Positions 4,550 through 14,874 are shown, numbered from the stretch's first letter. The stretch is DNA of 27,303 nucleotides from Chloroflexota bacterium (GCA_031395235.1 JANNUM010000016.1:1-27303), one strand, 5' to 3'. Numbers and translations are program-made. Notes: generated from the sequence alone by a model not told the origin.

Positions 4550-5346
4550 GCGCGCGACGGCACATCCTCATCACGAATGACGACGGGATCGACGCGGACG
4601 CGCTCCCACCGCTCTCCCAGGCGCTCGCGAAGCTCGGCGACGTCGACATCATCGTGCCCGAGCGCAACTGGAGCGGGGCGAGCCACAGCATCACGCTCTT
4701 CCGGCCACTGCGCGTGCGACCCACGAAGCTGCGGAGCGGGCAAGGGGCCTTCATGACCGACGGATCGCCGACGGACTGCGTGCGCCTCGCGGTCCTTGGG
4801 TTCCTCAAGCATCGGCCGGACATCGTCGTGAGCGGGATCAACCGCGGCGCGAACATGGGCGACGACATCACGTACTCCGGCACCGTGGCCGCGGCCATGG
4901 AAGGCCTTCTCTCCAACATCCCGTCGATCGCGATCTCGATCGGCGCGTTCGGTGGGGACATCGACTACGGACCGGCCGCGAGCTTCGCGGCATTGCTCGC
5001 GCGCAACATCCTGGACCGCGGGTTCGCGCCCGACTCCCTGCTCAACGTCAACGTGCCCCCGCTGCCTCGCGATCAGATCGCCGGCGTCGAGGTGACGCGC
5101 CTCGGCAAGCGCACGTACCGCGACCAGCTCGTCGAGCGCCTCGACCCGTACGGCAATCCCTACTACTGGGTCGGCGGCCCGGCGGTGAGCGACGAGGCCG
5201 AGGACGGGACGGACGTCGCGGCGCTACGCGCCGGGAAGATCAGCGTGACGCCGATCGCGCTCGATCTCACCAATCACGCGCTTCTGGAGGAGCTCGCGCG
5301 CTGGGACTGGGGCTGGAGCGCCCCGGTCGAGGTCTCCGCGGACTGA
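4546..5346 (+). CDS. surE: 5'/3'-nucleotidase SurE
   Basis: ILITNDDGI, SGASHSITL, DGSPTDCV, VVSGINRGANMGDDITYSGTVAAAMEG, GKISVTP; GTGA overlap with the upstream gene. Confidence 0.96.
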   Translation: MSARRHILITNDDGIDADALPPLSQALAKLGDVDIIVPERNWSGASHSITLFRPLRVRPTKLRSGQGAFMTDGSPTDCVRLAVLGFLKHRPDIVVSGINRGANMGDDITYSGTVAAAMEGLLSNIPSIAISIGAFGGDIDYGPAASFAALLARNILDRGFAPDSLLNVNVPPLPRDQIAGVEVTRLGKRTYRDQLVERLDPYGNPYYWVGGPAVSDEAEDGTDVAALRAGKISVTPIALDLTNHALLEELARWDWGWSAPVEVSAD

Positions 5347-7628
5347 CCGAGGCGCGGCGGTTCGCCCAGGAGCGTCGCGCTCACATAGCAGGCGATCGCG
5401 AGCCACGCCAGTCCGGTGAATCCCGTTTCGAGGGCCAGTCCGGCGGCGACGATCGAGCCGACGACCGACGCGACGCCGTTCACGCCCCACGCCCACGCGA
5501 GCAGGTTCCGCTCATGCGCGCCGGCGGCATTGAGCACGCGCGGGAAGGCGGTGCCGAGGGGAAATCCGAGCGCGATGGCAAAGACCAGCGCGATGATCAC
5601 GCGCACGACGAGCGGTCCCGCGAGCGTGGCGTCCGCCGCGCCGGGCAGGATCACCAGGACCGCGGCGAGTGCCACGGTGCTCCCGAGCGCGGCGCCGCGC
5701 ATGCCGCCGGGAAGCCGGCGGATGCTCGCCGAGCCCGCGGCCGCGCCGGACAGGAGCCCGGCCACGCCGACCGCGAGCGCCAGCGTGGGCTGACCGAGGT
5801 ACAGGGTCAGACGCTGCAGGAGGACGATCTCGACGACGATGAAACCGGTCCCGAGCAGTACCGCATAGCCCGTGACCCAGCGCGTGAGCCGTGCGTCGGA
5901 GCGCGACACCGTGCGGCGCAGCGGCAGCAGGATCAGGGCGAACGACAGGAGCAGGGCCGTGATCAGCGCCGCGACGAGCGTCTGCTGGCCCTGGGCCAGC
6001 GGCGCGCGGCCGGCGAGCGTCTCGCCCAGCGGGACGCTGTCGAAGAAGAACGGGCGGTCGTCGGTCGACGGGCTGTGACCGTTCGACGAGAAGGTCGCCG
6101 CGAGCCGTCCGCTCCTTCGGCTCCCGTCGTATGCCACCTCGAAGCCGTGTGCCCCGGCGAAGTCGCGAACGACCTTCATGCTGGCTTCGTCGAACTCCTC
6201 AGCGCGCACGAGCATCAGGCCGAACTCGGCGCTGCGAACGACGGCCAGATGCCGCTCGGGACGCAGGGCGCCGACGCGGCGGAGGCCGGCGCCGGCGACC
6301 TCCATCGCCCTCAGCATCTCGGTCGGCGGATCCCGATACCAGCGACCGATCGAGAGCGTCCCGCCCGGAGCGAGATGGCCGACGTAATCGGCGAACGCCT
6401 CCTCGGTATAGAGGTAGCTCTCTGAAAGGGCGTACGCGCCGCTCTGGAGCGCGGCCCAGCTGTCAACGACAGTCATCACGATGACGTCGTAGCGGTCGCT
6501 CGAGCGCCGCACGAAACTCCGCGCCTCGTCCGCGACGATCGTCACGCGCGGGTCGTCGTAGAGAGCGCCGCCGTAGTCGCGGTAGCGACCCTGCACCGTG
6601 GCGATCACCGCGCGGTTCACGTCGACACCGGTGACGGTGCGCGCGCCGCGACGGAGCGCGACCAGAACGTCGATGCCCCCGCCTGGACCGATGACCAGCA
6701 CGCTCGGCCGCTCCACCAGGAGGTACGGCGTGGCGAGGACGCTCGCATCGAGCACCGCGCCGTCCGCCTGCGTGCCGCCTTCGACGATCAGGGTCGCGGC
6801 ATCGAGGTCGATCCGCATGATGAGAGAGCGCGGCCGCTGTCCGTCGAAGGCCGTGTCGACGAGGAAGTCGTACGCGCTTGACGCTCCGTCGGCGCCGTAG
6901 CGGACGACGTCGACCCTGCCCTGCGGATCCCAGCGCGCGGACTCGACGGTGGCACCGCGCCGCAGGTCCTCGAGGATCGGCTTGAACGCGGCCGGTCGGA
7001 GCGGCGCGATCTGGTCGCCGACGGACGCGAGCGCGAGCGTGAGCAGGACGGTCGGGAGGACGGCGCCGAGCGCGACGCGCCGGCGCGCCTTCGCGTCGGC
7101 GAGGACCAGGGCAGCGATCGCGGCAAGCGCTGCGGCCGCCCCGTATTCCCCGGGCGCGCCGAGTGTGCGCATCGCGATGAACGCGAGGACTCCGCCGACC
7201 GCGGCGCCGGCGAGGTCGGCGGCGTACGTGCGCCCGGCCCACGCGGGATCGGCCGCGAGCGCGCGGACGACGACCCAGCTGACCAGGACGTACGGCAGGC
7301 TGCTCGCCGCGTAGATCAGCACGACCGCGAGGCTGACGTCGAGCGCCGCCGGGTCGACGATCGTCGCGACGGCCATCGCGAGCACGTAGCTCGCGCTCGC
7401 GAGTGCCGCGAGGCGCGACGTGCTGGGTGCGCTCGGACGCCGATCGATCAGCGTCGCCGCGGTCGCTCCGGCGCCCACGCCGAGCAGCGCGATCGACACC
7501 GCCACGAAGGTGAGGTGGTAGCCAAGCGTCGCGCTGAAGAGGCGCGTCTGCGCGACCTGAAAGAGCAGCGCCGAGCACGAGAGGAGGAACACCGCCGCGG
7601 CGGTGCGCGCGGAGAAGGATCGGAGCAT
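5274..7628 (-). CDS. Large membrane protein with a central spermidine-synthase-like (class I SAM-fold) domain
   Basis: 784 aa; about 6-7 N-terminal TM helices, a soluble domain VLVIGPGGGIDV...VTGVDVN...VADEARSFVRRSSDRYDVIVMTVVDSW...SESYLYTEEAF, then about 6 C-terminal TM helices (LYLGQPTLAL, WAWGVNGVASVVG). Confidence 0.8.
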   Translation of the reverse strand: MLRSFSARTAAAVFLLSCSALLFQVAQTRLFSATLGYHLTFVAVSIALLGVGAGATAATLIDRRPSAPSTSRLAALASASYVLAMAVATIVDPAALDVSLAVVLIYAASSLPYVLVSWVVVRALAADPAWAGRTYAADLAGAAVGGVLAFIAMRTLGAPGEYGAAAALAAIAALVLADAKARRRVALGAVLPTVLLTLALASVGDQIAPLRPAAFKPILEDLRRGATVESARWDPQGRVDVVRYGADGASSAYDFLVDTAFDGQRPRSLIMRIDLDAATLIVEGGTQADGAVLDASVLATPYLLVERPSVLVIGPGGGIDVLVALRRGARTVTGVDVNRAVIATVQGRYRDYGGALYDDPRVTIVADEARSFVRRSSDRYDVIVMTVVDSWAALQSGAYALSESYLYTEEAFADYVGHLAPGGTLSIGRWYRDPPTEMLRAMEVAGAGLRRVGALRPERHLAVVRSAEFGLMLVRAEEFDEASMKVVRDFAGAHGFEVAYDGSRRSGRLAATFSSNGHSPSTDDRPFFFDSVPLGETLAGRAPLAQGQQTLVAALITALLLSFALILLPLRRTVSRSDARLTRWVTGYAVLLGTGFIVVEIVLLQRLTLYLGQPTLALAVGVAGLLSGAAAGSASIRRLPGGMRGAALGSTVALAAVLVILPGAADATLAGPLVVRVIIALVFAIALGFPLGTAFPRVLNAAGAHERNLLAWAWGVNGVASVVGSIVAAGLALETGFTGLAWLAIACYVSATLLGEPPRLGQSAETSTGALQPQSQRASSSRSA

Positions 7629-7641: not shown

Positions 7642-7654
7642 GACGGTCCGTCTA
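7640..7654. repeat. Perfect 7-1-7 inverted repeat TAGACGG-T-CCGTCTA
   Basis: Read directly from the sequence; it overlaps the -10 box above and the stop codon of the DUF71 gene. Confidence 0.8.
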
Positions 7655-8356
7655 CTTTGGCACGAGGGCAGCGGTGGTCACCTCAAGCTGCGCGAAGCGC
7701 CCATCGTCGCGGCGCTCGCCCGCACGCCATGCGAGCGGTCGCGCGAAGAACGGACCGGCGAACGCGAACGAGTGGTATTCGCCGTTCTCGCCACACGGAT
7801 CGATGCCGGTTGCGGCGACGTCGCGCACGAAGTCCGCATCGACCACGCGTCCGAGCCACGACGCGTCGAGCTTCGCGGTTTCGACACAGGTCAGCACGGC
7901 TCGCCCACCGATCGCGACGAATTCGGAGAGCAGCGCGGCCGACGCCTCGCCCCACAGCGGCTCGACGTGGTCCAGGCCGAACGCGCGCGTGCGCTCCTCG
8001 TACCACGCGCGGACGTCCGCGAGATGGATGTCGCCGAACACGATGCCACGACAACCCTGCTGCACGAGCGCGGCGAACGTCTCGCGCAGCGACGGGTCAA
8101 AGGTCTCCCAGTCGGTCGGCACGCTCAAGAGTGGCACACCGGCCGCCTCTGCCTGGAGCGCGATCGCGTCGACCGGTGTGGCGTGGAACCGCACGCGCGC
8201 AGTCGCGCGGTCGTAGACGTTGACGAGCCAGTCGACCCGCAGTCCGCGGCGACGCGCACGCCAGAGCGCCAGGGCGCTGTCCTTGCCACCGGACCACATC
8301 AGCGCGTACCGCTCCGCGGCTTCTCGCGCCTTCGACTGCTCGCAGTAGGAGTTCAT
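7652..8356 (-). CDS. DUF71/COG2102 (diphthine-ammonia ligase-like) PP-loop ATP pyrophosphatase
   Basis: LMWSGGKDSALAL (PP-loop), IVFGDIHLADVRAWYE, EPLWG, DPCGENGEYHSF. ATG at 8356 in an ATGA overlap with the microprotein stop. Confidence 0.9.
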   Translation of the reverse strand: MNSYCEQSKAREAAERYALMWSGGKDSALALWRARRRGLRVDWLVNVYDRATARVRFHATPVDAIALQAEAAGVPLLSVPTDWETFDPSLRETFAALVQQGCRGIVFGDIHLADVRAWYEERTRAFGLDHVEPLWGEASAALLSEFVAIGGRAVLTCVETAKLDASWLGRVVDADFVRDVAATGIDPCGENGEYHSFAFAGPFFARPLAWRAGERRDDGRFAQLEVTTAALVPK

Positions 8357-8568
8357 TCGACGATCCCGTAGCGCGCGTCGACAACACCGGCGCGCACGAC
8401 GTGGACACACAGCCCGGCGATGCAGCCGTTCGAGGCGCAGCGCGCCGTGCAGAGATGACCACGCGCGCAGCCGATGCAGAACCGCGCGTCCTTGCAGACA
8501 TCGCAGCGCGCGTAGCGCCCGAGATCGAGCGTCGCGTCGCACGCCGCGCAGCGGTCCTCAGCCGGCAC
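8353..8568 (-). CDS. 71-aa Cys-rich putative metal-binding microprotein
   Basis: 10 Cys and 2 His with CxxC x3; overlaps btuD by 11 nt and the DUF71 gene by 4 nt (ATGA), filling the operon gap exactly. Confidence 0.75.
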   Translation of the reverse strand: MPAEDRCAACDATLDLGRYARCDVCKDARFCIGCARGHLCTARCASNGCIAGLCVHVVRAGVVDARYGIVE

Positions 8569-9361
8569 GAGCGTGCCGCTCCTCTACGGTGGCGGGCTCC
8601 GGGATCACGAAGGGCCGCCCGTCGTGCGCGACGACGCGCAGGCCCGGACCGAAGACCTCCGCGACGAGCTCGGCCGTGATGACGCGGCTCGGCTCCCCGT
8701 CGCGGACGACGGCGCCGTCCGCGAGCAGGACGACGCGCGATGCGAACGCGGCGGCCAGATTCAGATCGTGCAGGACGGCGACGACCGCGAGACCCCGCAC
8801 GCGGGCGAGCGTCACGACCCGCTCGAGCGTCGCGCGCTGGTGCGCCGGGTCGAGATGCGCCGTCGGCTCGTCGAGCAGCAGCACGCCGGCCTCCTGCGCG
8901 AGGGCCATCGCGAGCACGGCACGCTGACGCTCGCCGCCCGACACCCGGTCGATGCGACGGTCGGCCAGGTCCGTGGCACCGATGTCGTCGAGGGCGCGGG
9001 CGACGGCGCGCGCATCGTCGGAGCCGAGGGTCCCGAGCGGTCCTAGCCGCGACGTCCGGCCGAGCGCGACGATCTCACGGACGGTGAACGGAAAGAGCGT
9101 CTCGAAGACCTGCGGCACGACCGCGATGTGACGCGCGATGGAGCGGCGGTCCAGCGCCGTCACGTCGACGCCGTCGATCGTCACGCTGCCCGCCACTGGT
9201 CGCAGCAGTCCGCCGAGCACGCGCAGCAGCGTGGACTTCCCGGCGCCGTTCGGACCGATGAGCGCGACGAGCTCCCCCGCATGCGCGACGAGCCCGACGC
9301 CGCGAAGCACCTCACGCTCGCGATACCCGGCCCTGATCCCGCGGGCTACGACGCTGCTCAA
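8558..9361 (-). CDS. btuD: Cobalamin/Fe-siderophore ABC transporter ATPase
   Basis: Walker A GPNGAGKST, signature VSGGERQR, Walker B LLLDEP, H-loop VLHDLNLAA; TTG start in a TTGA overlap. Confidence 0.9.
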   Translation of the reverse strand: MSSVVARGIRAGYREREVLRGVGLVAHAGELVALIGPNGAGKSTLLRVLGGLLRPVAGSVTIDGVDVTALDRRSIARHIAVVPQVFETLFPFTVREIVALGRTSRLGPLGTLGSDDARAVARALDDIGATDLADRRIDRVSGGERQRAVLAMALAQEAGVLLLDEPTAHLDPAHQRATLERVVTLARVRGLAVVAVLHDLNLAAAFASRVVLLADGAVVRDGEPSRVITAELVAEVFGPGLRVVAHDGRPFVIPEPATVEERHARAG

Positions 9362-10344
9362 ACGAGATCCCGCCGCGAGCGCACGAGCAGCACGAGGAAG
9401 AACGGCGCACCGACGAGGCCCGTGATGACGCCCACCGGCAGCTCCGCGGGAGCGAGCGCGGTCCGCGCGCCGAGATCGGCGAGCACCAGGGCCATGGCGC
9501 CGGCCGGGATGCTCGCGACGATGAGGCGCCGGTGCGTCGCTCCGAGCAGGAAACGAAGCGCGTGCGGGATCACCAGCCCGACGAACCCGACGAGGCCGCC
9601 GATCGCGACAGCGGCGCCGGTGAGCAGCGCGGTCGTGGCAAGCACCGCCGCGGTCGTCCGATCGAGATCCACACCGAGCGCCGCCGCGGTCTCCTCGCCG
9701 AACGCGTACGCGTCGATGCGTGGCGCGAGCAGCAGCGCACCGATCACGCCGACCGTGACGACGGCCGCGGCCACCGCGAGCTCGCTCCAGTTGATGACCG
9801 AGATGCCGCCCTGCAGCCAGCCGAGGACGGCACGCAGGCGGAGCGCGAGACGATCGCTCGAGACGAGGATGAACGTCACGAGCGCACCAGCGAATGACGT
9901 GAGCACGACGCCGGCGAGCAGGACGGTGAGGACGGTCGTTCTCCCGCCAAGGCGCGCGAGGCGCCAGACGAGCGCGATCGCACCCATCGCGCCGCCGAAT
10001 GCGGCGAGTGGCACGAGCGCCGGCTCAAGCCCGAGCGCGACCGCCAGCACCGCGCCAAGGGATGCGCCCGCGGACGTCCCGGTGACGAAGGGATCCGCCA
10101 GCGGATTCCGCAGCATGCCCTGGAGCAGGGTGCCGGCCGCCGCGAGCGCGCCGCCGACGAGCGCCGCGCCGAGCACGCGCGGCAGACGGAGCTCGCGGAT
10201 GATCGTGCCATTCGTCCCCTCCGCGCCGAGCAGCGCCGAGAGCACCTCGCCTGGCGCGATGGCCACGGCGCCGACGAGGATGCCCGCAGCCGCGCTCACG
10301 ACGAGAGCGGCCGCGAGCAGCGCGAAGACGGTGAGGGTGCGCAA
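9358..10344 (-). CDS. btuC: Cobalamin/Fe-siderophore ABC permease (FecCD/BtuC family)
   Basis: LRLPRVLGAALVGGALA, RNPLADPFVTGTSAGA, GEETAAALGVD, GFVGLVIPH; TTG start directly after the btuF stop. Confidence 0.92.
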   Translation of the reverse strand: MRTLTVFALLAAALVVSAAAGILVGAVAIAPGEVLSALLGAEGTNGTIIRELRLPRVLGAALVGGALAAAGTLLQGMLRNPLADPFVTGTSAGASLGAVLAVALGLEPALVPLAAFGGAMGAIALVWRLARLGGRTTVLTVLLAGVVLTSFAGALVTFILVSSDRLALRLRAVLGWLQGGISVINWSELAVAAAVVTVGVIGALLLAPRIDAYAFGEETAAALGVDLDRTTAAVLATTALLTGAAVAIGGLVGFVGLVIPHALRFLLGATHRRLIVASIPAGAMALVLADLGARTALAPAELPVGVITGLVGAPFFLVLLVRSRRDLV

Positions 10345-11283
10345 CTACCGGAAGAGCTCCGGATGCACGAGCCTGGCGTACGCCTCCGCGGCCTCGCCGA
10401 CGCGAGGACCGGGCCGGTTGATCAGGTTGGCGGCGATCGTGACGATCCGCTTGTTCTTCACCGCGCTGACCTGTGACCATCCCGTTCGCCCAGCGACCTG
10501 GTCCGGTTTGGCCGAATAGTCGGACGCGTCGAGAACGATGATCTCCGGATCGCTCCGGAGGATCTCCTCCGCCGAGAGCTGCGGGTATGCGCTGGTCGCG
10601 CGCGCGGCGATATTCTGGCCGCCCGCGATCTCGATCAGGTCGTGGATGTACGACCCGGGTCCGACGGTGAAGATCTTGATCGGGTCGGAGGCGTCGATCT
10701 CGTGATACACGCGCGGCCTCATCGCCGCGGCTGACATCTTCGACCTGACGTCGTCCACACGCTTCTGGATGTCGCGCGCCATCGCCTCGCCGTCGCTCCC
10801 GACGGCTCGCCCCAGCAGGATCGCGGTGCGCGCGACGTCACCGACGCTCTGCGGATCGACGACGAGCACGAGGAGACCTGCACCCGCGAGCTTCTCGATC
10901 GTGCCGTCGGAGAACTTCACGCTGAGAACGAGGTCGGGCTTGAGGGAAACGACCTTTTCGAAGTTGACCTTGATGCCGCCGACCTTCTCGAGCTGCTTCG
11001 CCGCCGCAGGCTCGTCCGAGAAGTCATCCGCGCCGACGACCCGCGCTCCCGCGCCGAGCGCGAAGAGGAACTCGGTGATCGACGGGCCGATGGAAACGAT
11101 GCGCTCCGGACGCTTCGGGACCGTGACGGACCGGTTCTGGAAGTCGGTGACCGTGGCCGGGAACGTGGCGACGGTCGCTGAGGCGATGGGTTGCTGCGTG
11201 GGGGTCGGCGTGGGCGCGGCGGCGCCACAGGCGGAGGCGACGAAGAGGAGGACGACGAGGATGGGCGCGAGACGGAAACGCAT
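10345..11283 (-). CDS. btuF: Cobalamin-binding lipoprotein (BtuF-like helical-backbone substrate-binding protein)
   Basis: Start ATG 11283 with SD AAGGAG; signal peptide with lipobox ASA-C; PERIVSIGPSITEFLFALG, PDLVL, TVGPGSYIHDLIEIAGGQN. B12 specificity inferred from the riboswitch. Confidence 0.88.
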   Translation of the reverse strand: MRFRLAPILVVLLFVASACGAAAPTPTPTQQPIASATVATFPATVTDFQNRSVTVPKRPERIVSIGPSITEFLFALGAGARVVGADDFSDEPAAAKQLEKVGGIKVNFEKVVSLKPDLVLSVKFSDGTIEKLAGAGLLVLVVDPQSVGDVARTAILLGRAVGSDGEAMARDIQKRVDDVRSKMSAAAMRPRVYHEIDASDPIKIFTVGPGSYIHDLIEIAGGQNIAARATSAYPQLSAEEILRSDPEIIVLDASDYSAKPDQVAGRTGWSQVSAVKNKRIVTIAANLINRPGPRVGEAAEAYARLVHPELFR

Positions 11284-11289
11284 TTTGGC

Positions 11290-11428
11290 TCCACTCCTTT
11301 TTCGCGAAGGCGTGTTGGCCGCGAGCAGGAGTACCAGGCGACCTGAGTTAGGACGAACGTCCATCACAGTGGCGCGACCCTGCCGGAATCTCACCGGCTT
11401 CGCTGGGACCCTGCCTATTCAGTTGTGG
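11290..11428 (-). ncRNA. Cobalamin riboswitch (short, class-II-like) with expression platform
   Basis: Minus strand: ACAACTGAATAGG...AAGCCGGTGAGATTCCGGC (P4 with T-loop, 11382-11398) AGGGTCGC GCCACTG (11367-11373) TGAT GGAC-GTTC-GTCC TAACTCAGG. An anti-SD ACTCCT (11327-11332) is complementary to the SD AGGAGT (11293-11298). Lies directly upstream of btuFCD. Confidence 0.88.
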
Positions 11429-11440
11429 GCATGCGAGGCG

Positions 11441-11704
11441 CTACGCGGGGACGCGCTGGGTCGTGTACTTCACCGCGTCGGTGAGGTGGGTCTCGAAGAG
11501 ACGCTGAAGGGTCATGACATGGGCGCACAGACCCGAGGTATGGAAGTGATCGCATTCGCACGACCACTCATCTCCGTGGAGCGAGACGCTATGGGAGCTG
11601 TTGTCGCCGCGGAATCGGACCTCGAATTCCTGAAAGGTGATCCGCTGGGGCTCTTCGGCGTATCGCTTGGCCTTCTCGATCTTGGAGATGAGGCTCGAGT
11701 ACAT
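11441..11704 (-). CDS. Small SWIM-type zinc-finger protein (87 aa)
   Basis: MYSSLISKIEKAKRYAEEP...CECDHFHTSGLCAH (CxC-x8-CxH); strong SD GGAGG 7 nt before the ATG. Confidence 0.8.
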   Translation of the reverse strand: MYSSLISKIEKAKRYAEEPQRITFQEFEVRFRGDNSSHSVSLHGDEWSCECDHFHTSGLCAHVMTLQRLFETHLTDAVKYTTQRVPA

Positions 11705-11753
11705 CCACCGACCTCCACCGCTCCGTCGTTCCGGCTGGCGCCGGACGAGAGGG

Positions 11754-11759
11754 ATTCTA
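11754..11759 (-). promoter_or_regulatory. -10 element TAGAAT upstream of the SWIM gene
   Basis: Near-consensus TAGAAT about 50 nt upstream of ATG 11704; it uses the TAG stop of the HD-GYP gene. Confidence 0.45.
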
Positions 11760-13130
11760 ACTCGCCACCACTCGCGGGTGCGTGTGCGGCGCGTCGTCGG
11801 CGATCGCGGCCAGGCGGGCCACGGGAATGCTGAGGAATGCGGTCACGACGGCCGGATCGAACTGCGACCCGCCGCAGCGCCGGATCTCTTCGCGCGCGGC
11901 GTCGATGAGCAGCCCACGGCGATACGGGCGGTCGCTCGTCATGGCGTCGAACGAGTCGCCCACCGCGAAGATGCGGGCGCCAAGAGGGATATGGTCACCC
12001 TTGAGCCCGTTCGGGTAACCCATCCCGTCCCAACGCTCGTGATGGTGCCGAACGATCCGCGCGACGTCTTCCAGGAACGGGATGCCCGAGATGATCTGCG
12101 CGCCGAACTCGGGGTGGCGCTTCATCACGGCCCATTCCTTTTCGCTGAGAGCGGTCGGCTTGCGGAGAACGTTGTCCGGGACACCGATCTTGCCGACGTC
12201 GTGGAGCAGCGCGCCGCGGCGCAGCGTCGCGAGCTCCGCGCCGCGGATGTTCATCTGCTCGAGCAGCAGCTCCATGTATGCGACGACGCGGTCGGAGTGG
12301 CCACCCGTCTCGTTGTCGCGGAAGTCGAGCGCGCTGGTCAGAGCCGTGAGGGTCGCGTCGTAGGTGCGCTCGCGCAGCGCGAGCGCGTCCTCGAGCGCGC
12401 CGGCCTGCGCGACGATCCGCTTCGAGGACCGTGCATAGACGCCGCGCAGCACCAGCCAGAGGAAGGCCGCGGCAAAGGCGATGATCGCCGCGAGGGTGAC
12501 CTGGATGCGCATGAGCGCGGCGTCGATCGCAGCCATGTCGCGCCAGACGACGACAGCTCCGACGGTCTGACCCTTCTGTTTCACCGGGCTCCAGGCCTCC
12601 AGCGAGCGGATCTCGCTCGTGCCGGGACCGGGTGTCGCGCTCGAGCCTGCGGCCGAGACCCCACCGGAGTGATGCGTGTTATAGGTGCCGAAGCCGAGCG
12701 CCGTGCCCGGGACGCCGAGCTTCGGATCGGCCACGATCGTCGTCCGCTCTGCCGTGCGCATGCCCTTCAGCGCGGCGTCGAGCTGCTGATACGTGCCGAG
12801 ATCGAGACGACGGCCGACCTCGTCCTGATCGTACGAGAAGACGATGGCGCCGCTGCGATCGAAGAACTGGGTCGCTACGACGTTGTAGATCGAGAAGTGG
12901 AACGAGACGTCCCTCCTGAGCTCCCGTTGCTCGTCGGACGACAGACCTCGCTCGAACACCTCGTCGCCAAAGACCGTGCCGAAGTGGCTCGCCACAGCAG
13001 CCTGAGTGAAGGCAGTCGTCTCATCCTGGACGTAGCGGCCCACGAGGTAGGCGGTGCCCGTCGCGAGCACCGGCGCGGTCAGGGCGAGCACGGCGGCGAG
13101 GGCCAGCGAGAAGCGCGCGACCGGGCTCAT
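11757..13130 (-). CDS. Membrane-anchored sensor HD-GYP cyclic-di-GMP phosphodiesterase
   Basis: Two TM helices flank an extracytoplasmic domain. C-terminal D-FRDNETGGHSDRV, LLHDVGKIG, RHPEFG, HHHERWDGMGYP, DSFDAMTSDRPYR form a complete HD-GYP motif set. Start uncertain (13130; in-frame ATG 13154 or GTG 13181 also possible). Confidence 0.92.
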   Translation of the reverse strand: MSPVARFSLALAAVLALTAPVLATGTAYLVGRYVQDETTAFTQAAVASHFGTVFGDEVFERGLSSDEQRELRRDVSFHFSIYNVVATQFFDRSGAIVFSYDQDEVGRRLDLGTYQQLDAALKGMRTAERTTIVADPKLGVPGTALGFGTYNTHHSGGVSAAGSSATPGPGTSEIRSLEAWSPVKQKGQTVGAVVVWRDMAAIDAALMRIQVTLAAIIAFAAAFLWLVLRGVYARSSKRIVAQAGALEDALALRERTYDATLTALTSALDFRDNETGGHSDRVVAYMELLLEQMNIRGAELATLRRGALLHDVGKIGVPDNVLRKPTALSEKEWAVMKRHPEFGAQIISGIPFLEDVARIVRHHHERWDGMGYPNGLKGDHIPLGARIFAVGDSFDAMTSDRPYRRGLLIDAAREEIRRCGGSQFDPAVVTAFLSIPVARLAAIADDAPHTHPRVVAS

Positions 13131-13294
13131 GACGCCCCGCCCGAGGTCCCCCATGCCACCGCTGGTACGCACGCGGCTCACGCCTTGGATGGCTCCCCTT
13201 ACGTAGTTGATCGCTCGCGCGTGAGCATCGCGGTGACGCGTATAGCGGGGATAACTCGCGCGGGGGATGCCGGGTGGCTGGCGGGTATCGGTGT

Positions 13295-13816
13295 TTAGGG
13301 CCGCGGTGGCTTGTATGCCCGCCACGCATCGAGGCCACGCGCAGTAGACGGCCAAGCCAGCTCCTCGAGCGCGGGGAGCTCGTCGCGCGGGAAGAAGCGC
13401 GCCTCGGACGCCTCGTCGGGCGCCACGCGCAGCTCGCCGCGTTCGATGCGGGCCCGGTAGACGACGACCAGGATCGGGAAGCCCGGCCGCATCCAGCTCG
13501 CGAGCAGTCCATCGAGGCTGACGTGGAAGCCGGTCTCCTCCTCGGTCTCGCGCACCGCGGCCTGCTCCGGTGTCTCGTCGTCCTCGACCAGACCGCCGGG
13601 GAGCGCCCAGTGGCCGTCTCTCGGACCGTAATTCAGGCGCATCAGGAGCACTCCGCCGTCCCGCTCGACGATCGTGTTCGCGCCGATCTGCACGTGCATG
13701 AAGTCGGCGAAGTCGCACACCGGACAGGTCGGACGGTCGCGTCCGTCGATGCGCGTCGGGACGAGCGCCGTGCCATCGCGCGGGCAGAACGCGAAGCGCG
13801 ACGCGCGGTGGATCAC
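13295..13816 (-). CDS. Nudix hydrolase with an N-terminal zinc ribbon
   Basis: FCPRDG...CPVC ribbon; Nudix box GGLVEDDETPEQAAVRETEEETG; GTGA overlap with the upstream gene. Confidence 0.9.
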   Translation of the reverse strand: MIHRASRFAFCPRDGTALVPTRIDGRDRPTCPVCDFADFMHVQIGANTIVERDGGVLLMRLNYGPRDGHWALPGGLVEDDETPEQAAVRETEEETGFHVSLDGLLASWMRPGFPILVVVYRARIERGELRVAPDEASEARFFPRDELPALEELAWPSTARGLDAWRAYKPPRP

Positions 13817-14874
13817 CCCTTGGCGAGTCGCTCCTTGAGGTGATCGATCGACTTGACCGGCGTCGGGTCGGCGCCGTTGAGCAGCGCGACATAGAAGGAG
13901 ACGTAGTCGGTGAAGAGCGTCAGTTGCAGGATCTCAGAGAACATGCTCGAGCCGCTGAACTGCAGGGTCTTGTGCGGGATGGTCGCGCGGTCGAGGAGGT
14001 CGCGCGTCACGTCGAAGCGGAGCTTGTGGCGCGGGTTGTCGCGATCGCTGCGCAGCAGGAGCACGGTGAGCGCCTCGCGCGCGACGTCGGGATGCGGAAA
14101 GCCGACTACCGCGTTGTGGTTGAGCTCGCTCATGACGTCGTAGGCGGCCCAGTTCTTCGCGTTCTCGTTCCACTGGCCTTTGACGCGGCGCGCCATGACG
14201 CCCATCACGCCGGCGCCGTAGGCGAAAATGACGCGACCATAAAGCTCGATCGCGAGCTTCTTCGCGTCATTCGTCCGCGCTCCCTCGTGCACGCGCTCCT
14301 CGAGCTTCGCGAGATCCGCGAGCGCGGCATCCACGTCGGTCGAGAGGTCACGCACGAACCCGAGGCGTACGAGCGCTCCGAGCACGAGGCCGAGGGAGTA
14401 GCCGAGCGCCGCGCGCGGCTGCGCCGCGTAGCTGAAGCTGATCACGGGGTACCGAGCGGCCTTCGAGAGCTCCGCGATCCTGCCGCCGGTCGTCAGCGCG
14501 AGGATGCGCGCCCCGCGGCGCTGCGCCTCCTCGAAGCTCGAGAGCGTCTCTTCGGTGTTGCCCGAGTACGAGGAGACGATCACGAGCGAGTCGCGCCCGA
14601 CGTAGGCCGGGAGTCCGTAATCGCGATGCACGCTCATCGGGACCTTCAGATCGCCGGAGAGCAGCGCCGCCGCGAGGTCGCCACCGATCGCGGAGCCGCC
14701 CATGCCAGCGACCGTGATATTGCGCACGTCTCCGTGCGCCGGCGGAAGCTGCGCTGCGCGCGCGATCGTCCACGCGTCGCGCACCTGCTTCGGGAGATCC
14801 TTGATGCGGTCGAGCATGTTGCCGGGGTCGGCCGCGCGGATGCGCTCGACCGATTCGATCACTGTCGTATCCAT
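13813..14874 (-). CDS. Bifunctional phosphoglucose/phosphomannose isomerase (SIS domain, archaeal-type)
   Basis: GMGGSAIGG, SSYSGNTEETL, TTGG, RRVKGQWNENAK, ELNHNAVVG. ATG 14874 in a TGATG overlap. Confidence 0.9.
   Translation of the reverse strand: MDTTVIESVERIRAADPGNMLDRIKDLPKQVRDAWTIARAAQLPPAHGDVRNITVAGMGGSAIGGDLAAALLSGDLKVPMSVHRDYGLPAYVGRDSLVIVSSYSGNTEETLSSFEEAQRRGARILALTTGGRIAELSKAARYPVISFSYAAQPRAALGYSLGLVLGALVRLGFVRDLSTDVDAALADLAKLEERVHEGARTNDAKKLAIELYGRVIFAYGAGVMGVMARRVKGQWNENAKNWAAYDVMSELNHNAVVGFPHPDVAREALTVLLLRSDRDNPRHKLRFDVTRDLLDRATIPHKTLQFSGSSMFSEILQLTLFTDYVSFYVALLNGADPTPVKSIDHLKERLAKG

Follow-up and report, generated by a model that had tools for sequence, protein, structure and literature searches.

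A ZZ-like cysteine-rich microprotein beside a DUF71-B12 enzyme in a riboswitch-led corrinoid uptake operon of Candidatus Limnocylindria

The DUF71 family of PP-loop ATP pyrophosphatases is characterized by ATP-dependent adenylation of carboxylates, and Dph6 of archaea and eukaryotes serves as the model for such adenylation followed by amidation. We know of no bacterium with diphthamide. A PP-loop ATP pyrophosphatase core together with a zinc or Fe-S cysteine site is also found in QueC, TtuA/TtcA and some LarE proteins, of which QueC and LarE activate carboxylates; in these enzymes the cysteine ligands lie in the catalytic polypeptide and in another fold. Corrinoid side-chain amides and carboxylates, the same kind of bond that is proposed below as a target of DUF71, are acted upon by CbiZ, CobQ/CbiP and CobB/CbiA, whose folds are unrelated to DUF71; CbiZ hydrolyses, and CobQ and CobB work in de novo synthesis, depend on glutamine and form ADP. 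A DUF71-B12 subgroup has been defined by the motif ENGE[F/Y]H, which replaces the EGGE/DxE motif of Dph6 (de Crecy-Lagard et al. 2012, PMC3541065). The link between this subgroup and btuFCD is already published, with 75 of 102 subgroup genes adjoining B12 transporter genes such as btuCDF; besides, bacterial DUF71-B12 and CbiZ were strictly anti-correlated and DUF71-B12 clustered with cbiB (PMC3541065). Here, we analyzed a 27,303-nucleotide stretch of DNA from a Chloroflexota bacterium belonging to Candidatus Limnocylindria (GCA_031395235.1, JANNUM010000016.1:1-27303; this whole stretch is hereafter called the window), in which a DUF71-B12 gene is the last of a riboswitch-btuFCD operon and is directly preceded by a gene for a small cysteine-rich protein (the microprotein). 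We are highly confident in the identity of this operon as a B12-controlled corrinoid-acquisition unit. What is new here is the cysteine-rich ZZ-like accessory domain, its fusions to DUF71 and the lack of detected nucleotide-loop genes in the host. The elements of the operon, with positions counted from the first letter of the window, are as follows.

11284..11426, minus strand: adenosylcobalamin (AdoCbl) riboswitch aptamer (RF01482, full model 1-149)
10345..11283, minus strand: btuF-like substrate-binding lipoprotein, 312 amino acids (PF01497, 5.9e-36)
9358..10344, minus strand: btuC-like FecCD permease, 328 amino acids, TTG start (PF01032, 2e-80)
8558..9361, minus strand: btuD-like ABC ATPase, 267 amino acids (PF00005, 3e-33)
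8353..8568, minus strand: microprotein, 71 amino acids, 10 cysteines, ZZ-like (no Pfam or NCBIfam family)
7652..8356, minus strand: DUF71-B12 PP-loop ATP pyrophosphatase, 234 amino acids (PF01902, 137.5 bits, 6e-40)

All of these elements were found in the order and at the positions given in a preliminary description of this DNA, and each of the four stop/start junctions listed there agreed with direct reading of the sequence. The TAG stop of btuF abuts the TTG start of btuC (TAG|TTG), btuC and btuD share a TTGA overlap, btuD and the microprotein gene overlap by 11 nucleotides, and the microprotein and DUF71 genes share an ATGA overlap, with GTGA at the same junction in one relative. The preliminary description also regarded these genes as a single coupled unit behind the B12 riboswitch, a view that gains support from the preservation of both the overlaps and the riboswitch in relatives. 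A terminator scan of the minus strand from 11428 to 7652 detected no site, although such a scan is weak in DNA with 70% GC, which is the composition of the window.

The riboswitch was detected as a match to RF01482 at 11426..11284 with 49.7 bits (E 5e-8, in an E-value scan of positions 11200-12000). The gathering cut-off of this family is 50 bits, and the score just under it explains why an Rfam scan of the whole window at gathering thresholds yielded no matches. We accepted the riboswitch as real because the orthologous sites of five relatives also carry RF01482 (52.4, 42.2, 52.4, 61.6 and 64.4 bits). Its end is located one base before the ATG of btuF, an arrangement shared by the five relatives, and its 3' hairpin covers the AAGGAG ribosome-binding site of btuF, which fits translational control. 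Folding the leader as a single sequence gave no useful signal (z 0.09). The products of btuF, btuC and btuD belong to the Pfam class families PF01497, PF01032 and PF00005, respectively, and the btuF product begins with a lipoprotein-type signal peptide with a cysteine lipobox. None of them reached the cut-off of an NCBIfam equivalog (BtuF, 100 bits versus 234; BtuC, 233.9 versus 461 and 204.9 versus 334; BtuD, 128.8 versus 281), nor was that of the corrinoid ABC ATPase model NF007082 reached (241 bits versus 537), so we took corrinoid specificity from the riboswitch together with the family class.

The last gene of the operon encodes a DUF71 protein whose match to PF01902 is far above the cut-off of 23.2 bits. 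Its PP-loop SGGKDS (residues S22-S27) is intact and conserved, and it carries ENGEYH at residues 190-195, in which E190, G192, E193 and H195 were invariant among 17 sequences. Judged by this motif and by the adjacent btuFCD genes, the enzyme is a member of the published DUF71-B12 subgroup and not a Dph6, as the preliminary description had proposed when it placed the protein in a B12-salvage subgroup. It shares with Dph6 the Pfam family and the ATP-binding residues, but it remained below the cut-off of the Dph6 equivalog TIGR03679 (107.5 versus 197.3 bits) and has a histidine where the EGGE/DxE motif of Dph6 has the catalytic glutamate. The nearest solved structures were 2D13 and 3RJZ. Compared with the subgroup described in 2012, the PF01902 fold, the SGGKDS loop, the ENGE[F/Y]H motif and the place beside btuFCD under B12 control are the same, whereas a ZZ-like module unmentioned in that paper precedes the enzyme in the window and is joined to it by fusion elsewhere, a second module (RPKAWGAL...RRAIWA) also occurs on DUF71 here, and the enzyme was found in genomes without detected CbiB/CobS, which misfits the idea of CbiZ replacement (PMC3541065). 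Searches of the available literature turned up no experiments that followed up DUF71-B12. In public records, close bacterial homologues (P0098, P0106, P0108, P0111 and others) are labeled "diphthine--ammonia ligase". Because these homologues score under the cut-off of the Dph6 equivalog and have the motif of the B12 subgroup, this label is probably a misannotation based on homology alone.

We then considered the cobamide metabolism of the host. The window's genome (2.4 Mb, 87% complete) has a PduO-type corrinoid adenosyltransferase and two genes of the methylmalonyl-CoA mutase family, and searches of this genome did not find CbiB, CbiZ, CobS, CobU or CobT. A similar picture was observed for 41 Limnocylindria genomes. 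The AdoCbl-dependent mutase family was present in all 41 and MetH in 6, and DUF71 occurred in 16, but just one of the 41 yielded CbiB and CobS, which were not found in 15 of the 16 genomes with DUF71. Since nucleotide-loop genes were not found while mutases are present, Limnocylindria look, on gene content, like strict importers of complete cobamides. Lower-ligand remodelling or a CbiZ-like cleavage is disfavored in this lineage, because the products would be intermediates that are unusable without CbiB and CobS. The suggestion of remodelling in the preliminary description is therefore not retained, given the genes not found in the window's genome and the occurrence of CbiB/CobS in a single one of the 16 DUF71-bearing relatives. 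The matches of the window's genome to GATase_3, the C-terminal domain of CobQ/CobB, were rejected as non-specific and as no sign of corrinoid amidation, with matches also in 14 of 14 control genomes.

The gene between btuD and DUF71 starts with GTG, with GAGGAG 10 nucleotides upstream, and several homologues have ATG at the position of this start. A word-indexed search returned 49 homologue clusters of 70-73 amino acids with 59-92% identity to the microprotein. The median pairwise ratio of nonsynonymous to synonymous substitution rates was 0.275 for the microprotein gene, as compared with 0.15 for btuD and 0.22 for DUF71 from the same loci. By these sequence measures the microprotein gene is a genuine coding gene under purifying selection. 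Nine cysteines (C10, C22, C25, C31, C34, C40, C44, C49 and C54) were invariant among 33 family sequences, and C7 and H38 were kept in at least 90% of them. No Pfam or NCBIfam model reached its threshold for the microprotein, and no Pfam family did so for any of the 33 members. The sub-threshold matches of the family were all to cross-brace zinc fingers (IRF2BP RING, MYND and the ZZ finger of ADA2); when the ZZ families of Pfam were tested (PF00569 / PF25299), ZZ_ADA2 was matched by 4 of 33 members (best E 0.0015) and ZZ by one of 33 (E 0.21).

Structural comparisons pointed to the same class. An AlphaFold2 model of the microprotein built with the family alignment had a mean confidence (pLDDT) of 86, and in an exhaustive structural comparison ZZ domains (Ada2, p62, Nbr1, RSC and HERC2) were on top, with Z values of 4.3-4.6 over 48-54 residues. 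ZZ domains also led an Atlas shape search with the model (TM 0.52-0.59). A Foldseek search of PDB with the model gave nothing at E <= 0.001, and the feature search of the ESM Atlas gave unnamed clusters only. Profile matches to PDB sequences, comprising scorpion toxins (E >= 0.017) and the ZZ finger of CBP/p300 (E 0.14-0.2), were considered compositional matches between cysteine-rich proteins and were taken as chance. The ligand spacing of the microprotein, CxxC-x11-CxxC-x5-CxxC-x3-HxC, is that of the ZZ-type binuclear site, and three invariant cysteines (C44, C49 and C54) lie beyond the eight ZZ-type ligands. Family members without C7 have a histidine two residues after C10, a swap that appears to be of the type typical of zinc sites. 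The microprotein thus probably carries two predicted ZZ-type zinc sites and, in addition, the three further invariant cysteines. The model suggests a ZZ-like cross-brace fold, with Z values too low to prove homology to ZZ domains. The resemblance to ZZ and related cross-brace fingers (p62, Ada2, CBP/p300 and HERC2) lies in the ligand spacing and in most of the top rows of the fold searches; unlike these fingers, the microprotein has the extra cysteines and a C-terminal beta-hairpin, is bacterial, is encoded in a cofactor operon and falls under the Pfam ZZ threshold.

Of 1.84 billion representative proteins, 37 matched a profile of the microprotein family at E <= 0.001. Among 301 Chloroflexota genomes, the only confident match was in the window's own genome. 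In the genus, the microprotein was present in 10 of 24 species (the 24 congeners tallied include G322, which is flagged as unpublished and on which no claim rests), and DUF71 was located directly downstream on the same strand in all 11 microprotein-bearing genomes. As this linkage represents a single lineage, independent arrangements were sought, and six B12-linked gene orders were found across the family and its associated modules. The first (a) is the order of the window's genus, riboswitch-btuFCD-microprotein-DUF71. In the second (b, locus L028), cobT (PF02277) takes the place upstream and overlaps the microprotein gene by 4 nucleotides, followed by DUF71. The third (c, L030) contains a microprotein that is extended at its N-terminus by the RPKAWGAL...RRAIWA module, overlaps DUF71 by 4 nucleotides and lies beside a divergent btuF-like fragment; neither L028 nor L030 has btuD beside the microprotein. 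In the fourth (d), the cysteine domain is fused to the C-terminus of DUF71, as seen in proteins P0090 and P0065. In L017, a classical cobalamin riboswitch (RF00174, 72.3 bits) is followed by a gene for a lipoprotein, by an ECF transporter and by the P0090 fusion. P0065, from another sample, is collinear with P0090 (51% identity over 275 residues), which makes the fusion an old one and not an artefact of assembly. The fifth order (e, L036) has btuD followed by the microprotein and then by a convergent SurE gene, without DUF71, and in the sixth (f, L023, from a sister family) the RPKAWGAL module alone forms a C-terminal extension of DUF71. All B12-linked members fell into one 16-row clade of the maximum-likelihood tree (support 99/98). 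Two further proteins, P0087 and P0089, were examined as longer forms or fusions and excluded; they are single members with joins within conserved motifs and look like chimeras or deletion products.

In these arrangements DUF71 itself, the last gene of the riboswitch-btuFCD operon in the window, is found elsewhere beside an ECF transporter and beside cobT. Unlike in QueC, TtuA/TtcA and LarE, the cysteine ligands here reside on a separate, dispensable ZZ-like protein or on a C-terminal domain. The gene arrangements make it likely that the microprotein functions together with DUF71 or in the handling of corrinoids. The preliminary description had presented it as an undescribed partner of DUF71, and the adjacency in the cobT and extended-microprotein loci and the two fusions speak for this proposal, with the qualification that the partnership is not constant. 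The expectation that homologues sit consistently between btuD and DUF71 held for the microprotein-bearing genomes of the genus, where DUF71 was always downstream, and did not extend to the one congener with a deletion, the other gene orders and the unlinked sister clade.

Taken as a whole, the explanation that we favor, and to which we give an even chance, is that of a B12-repressed corrinoid acquisition operon of cobamide-auxotrophic Candidatus Limnocylindria in which DUF71 serves cofactor repair. The operon would be switched on when B12 is scarce, and BtuFCD would bring in corrinoids, of which complete cobamides would be adenosylated by the PduO-type transferase and then used in mutases. DUF71-B12 would adenylate a carboxylate on an imported corrinoid by the PP-loop chemistry of its family, and ammonia would then restore the amide on a cobamide with a hydrolysed side chain, which would be cofactor repair and not remodelling. 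Because nucleotide-loop genes and CbiZ were not found, the substrate would most likely be a complete cobamide in which a side-chain amide has been hydrolysed. The microprotein would act as a metal-stabilized, dispensable accessory subunit docked at the C-terminal face of DUF71, a location suggested by the approximately 4 residues that separate the two parts in the fusions, and its ZZ-like fold may help to bind or present the substrate. Complex prediction for DUF71 and the microprotein gave a score of 0.00, which is no verdict and no evidence either way. The re-amidation chemistry, which is drawn by analogy, is a tentative assignment that we hold less likely than not; it is the most economical reading given the missing nucleotide-loop genes, and it was the idea of the preliminary description and not the published proposal. 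A fuller version is slightly more doubtful still: DUF71-B12 and its ZZ-like partner may use ATP and ammonia to re-amidate the hydrolysed side chains of complete cobamides after import, which would open degraded soil corrinoids to strict B12 auxotrophs, with the three extra cysteines forming either a third site for metal or one that ligates cobalt and presents the corrinoid.

Several observations weigh against this explanation. The score of the window riboswitch is 0.3 bit below the Rfam cut-off, and the completeness of the metagenome-assembled genomes is 64-97% (several at 91-97%), so missing genes are no proof of absence. The 2012 paper favored a CbiZ-like role for DUF71-B12 from the phyletic anti-correlation (PMC3541065). 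One congener, G315, keeps btuFCD-DUF71 but has lost the microprotein gene by a clean deletion, in which the btuD stop and the microprotein start are followed after a few codons by DUF71 (L021:620-790). Family f70 and G169 also have DUF71 without the microprotein, which is absent from most DUF71-B12 loci, and the converse situation is seen in L036, with btuD and the microprotein but no DUF71, and in three microprotein-bearing Thermomicrobiales genomes without DUF71. In addition, the tested members of the B12-linked clade P0050, P0054 and P0055 stand alone in unrelated contexts, as do 4 of 4 tested members of the sister clade. Because the microprotein is deleted in a congener and stands alone or unlinked elsewhere, it is, on this distribution, an accessory that one clade has recruited to DUF71-B12 and to corrinoid uptake, and not an obligate subunit.

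The L036 locus, the 11-nucleotide overlap with btuD and the three invariant cysteines beyond the ZZ-type ligands are also compatible with a microprotein that serves corrinoid uptake or trafficking itself, by taking the corrinoid from BtuCD, ligating cobalt through thiolates or aiding decyanation or reduction before adenosylation, with the link to DUF71 being secondary. We regard this as unlikely, since both collinear fusions join the domain to DUF71 and not to a transporter subunit, the cobT-microprotein-DUF71 and extended-microprotein-DUF71 loci have no btuD beside the microprotein, and one DUF71-bearing btuFCD operon lacks the microprotein altogether. It is very unlikely that DUF71-B12 replaces CbiZ, cleaving pseudo-B12 or cobinamide to cobyric acid or aiding lower-ligand remodelling with the help of the microprotein. 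Although the anti-correlation with CbiZ and the clustering with cbiB (PMC3541065), the absence of a detected CbiZ from the window's genome and the micro-DUF71 pair that follows cobT in one metagenomic locus are all in favor of such a role, cobyric acid would be a dead end where CbiB and CobS are found in one of 16 DUF71-bearing Limnocylindria and where neither CobU nor CobT was detected in the window's genome, and the intact PP-loop points to ATP-dependent adenylation rather than hydrolysis.

Little credence is also given to the possibility that the microprotein is a generic small zinc finger, either a regulator or a hitch-hiker, which has no role in B12 metabolism and owes its place in the operon to lineage inertia. 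Six B12-linked gene orders, among them both fusions and a locus with a second class of riboswitch, are far beyond chance for a family of this size, and the stop/start overlap with DUF71 is conserved and the gene is under purifying selection; these facts stand against the several members found alone in unrelated contexts, the loss in one congener and the rarity of the family in the phylum. B12 riboswitches also control B12-independent alternatives. It is equally improbable, however, that DUF71 acts on a non-corrinoid substrate needed when B12 is scarce and shares only its regulation with the transporter: literature searches found no demonstration of a DUF71-B12 substrate, and the f70 DUF71 gene is divergent from the btu genes with no riboswitch match of its own, but DUF71 associates with BtuFCD and ECF, which are unrelated types of transporter, as well as with cobT and, according to the literature, cbiB, and its adjacency to uptake genes and not to B12-independent isozymes argues for a corrinoid.

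Some neighboring genes and additional modules were also observed. Directly upstream of the riboswitch, an 87-amino-acid open reading frame (11441-11704, minus strand) has a SWIM-like CxC...CxH pattern (PF04434, 18.2 bits, just under the cut-off). It is kept in the same place in relatives with 80-92% identity, is found tail-to-tail with DUF71 in the sister family (L023, 59% identity) and may be part of the same system. Further upstream, a 711-amino-acid protein (11757-13892, minus strand) has a C-terminal HD_5 (HD-GYP-type) domain; this position is occupied by a 474-amino-acid HD_5 gene in relative L002 and by none in L001. On the other side of the operon, a gene for a 784-amino-acid polytopic membrane protein with a weak spermidine-synthase/methyltransferase domain (5274-7628, minus strand) starts 23 nucleotides past the DUF71 stop, and may be co-transcribed with the operon in the window because no terminator-like site lies between the two genes. 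SurE or a 229-amino-acid open reading frame is present in this position in relatives. The second accessory module, RPKAWGAL...RRAIWA, comprises approximately 45-70 amino acids with no Pfam match (L023:5989-6219, plus strand; P0088 residues 26-69; P0060; P0062). In family f70 it extends DUF71 at the C-terminus, and in other loci it extends the cysteine domain at the N-terminus, the two forms having 59% identity over 44 amino acids. In the ECF-type B12 operon of L017, the riboswitch is followed first by a gene for a 156-amino-acid lipoprotein of no family (L017:765-1235), and a MoeA-like gene (L017:5210-6490) overlaps the end of the fusion of DUF71 with the cysteine domain by 4 nucleotides. A tRNA-Sec gene (RF01852, 71 bits; L027:2332-2425, plus strand) was detected on a short contig with a stand-alone homologue of the microprotein.

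Many B12-salvaging prokaryotes have DUF71-B12, to which no reaction has been assigned since 2012, and this locus makes the question more testable. It offers a dedicated cysteine-rich accessory domain, separate or fused, whose absence may explain why DUF71-B12 alone would look inactive. AdoCbl-dependent genomes without detected nucleotide-loop enzymes represent a natural test set; they narrow the substrate to complete cobamides and argue against CbiZ replacement. The locus further draws attention to a probable systematic misannotation of bacterial homologues as "diphthine-ammonia ligase" and to a family of prokaryotic ZZ-like fingers for which Pfam has no model. If true, the cofactor-repair reading would provide DUF71-B12 with a definite function and would establish a new family of bacterial zinc fingers that takes part in cofactor handling.

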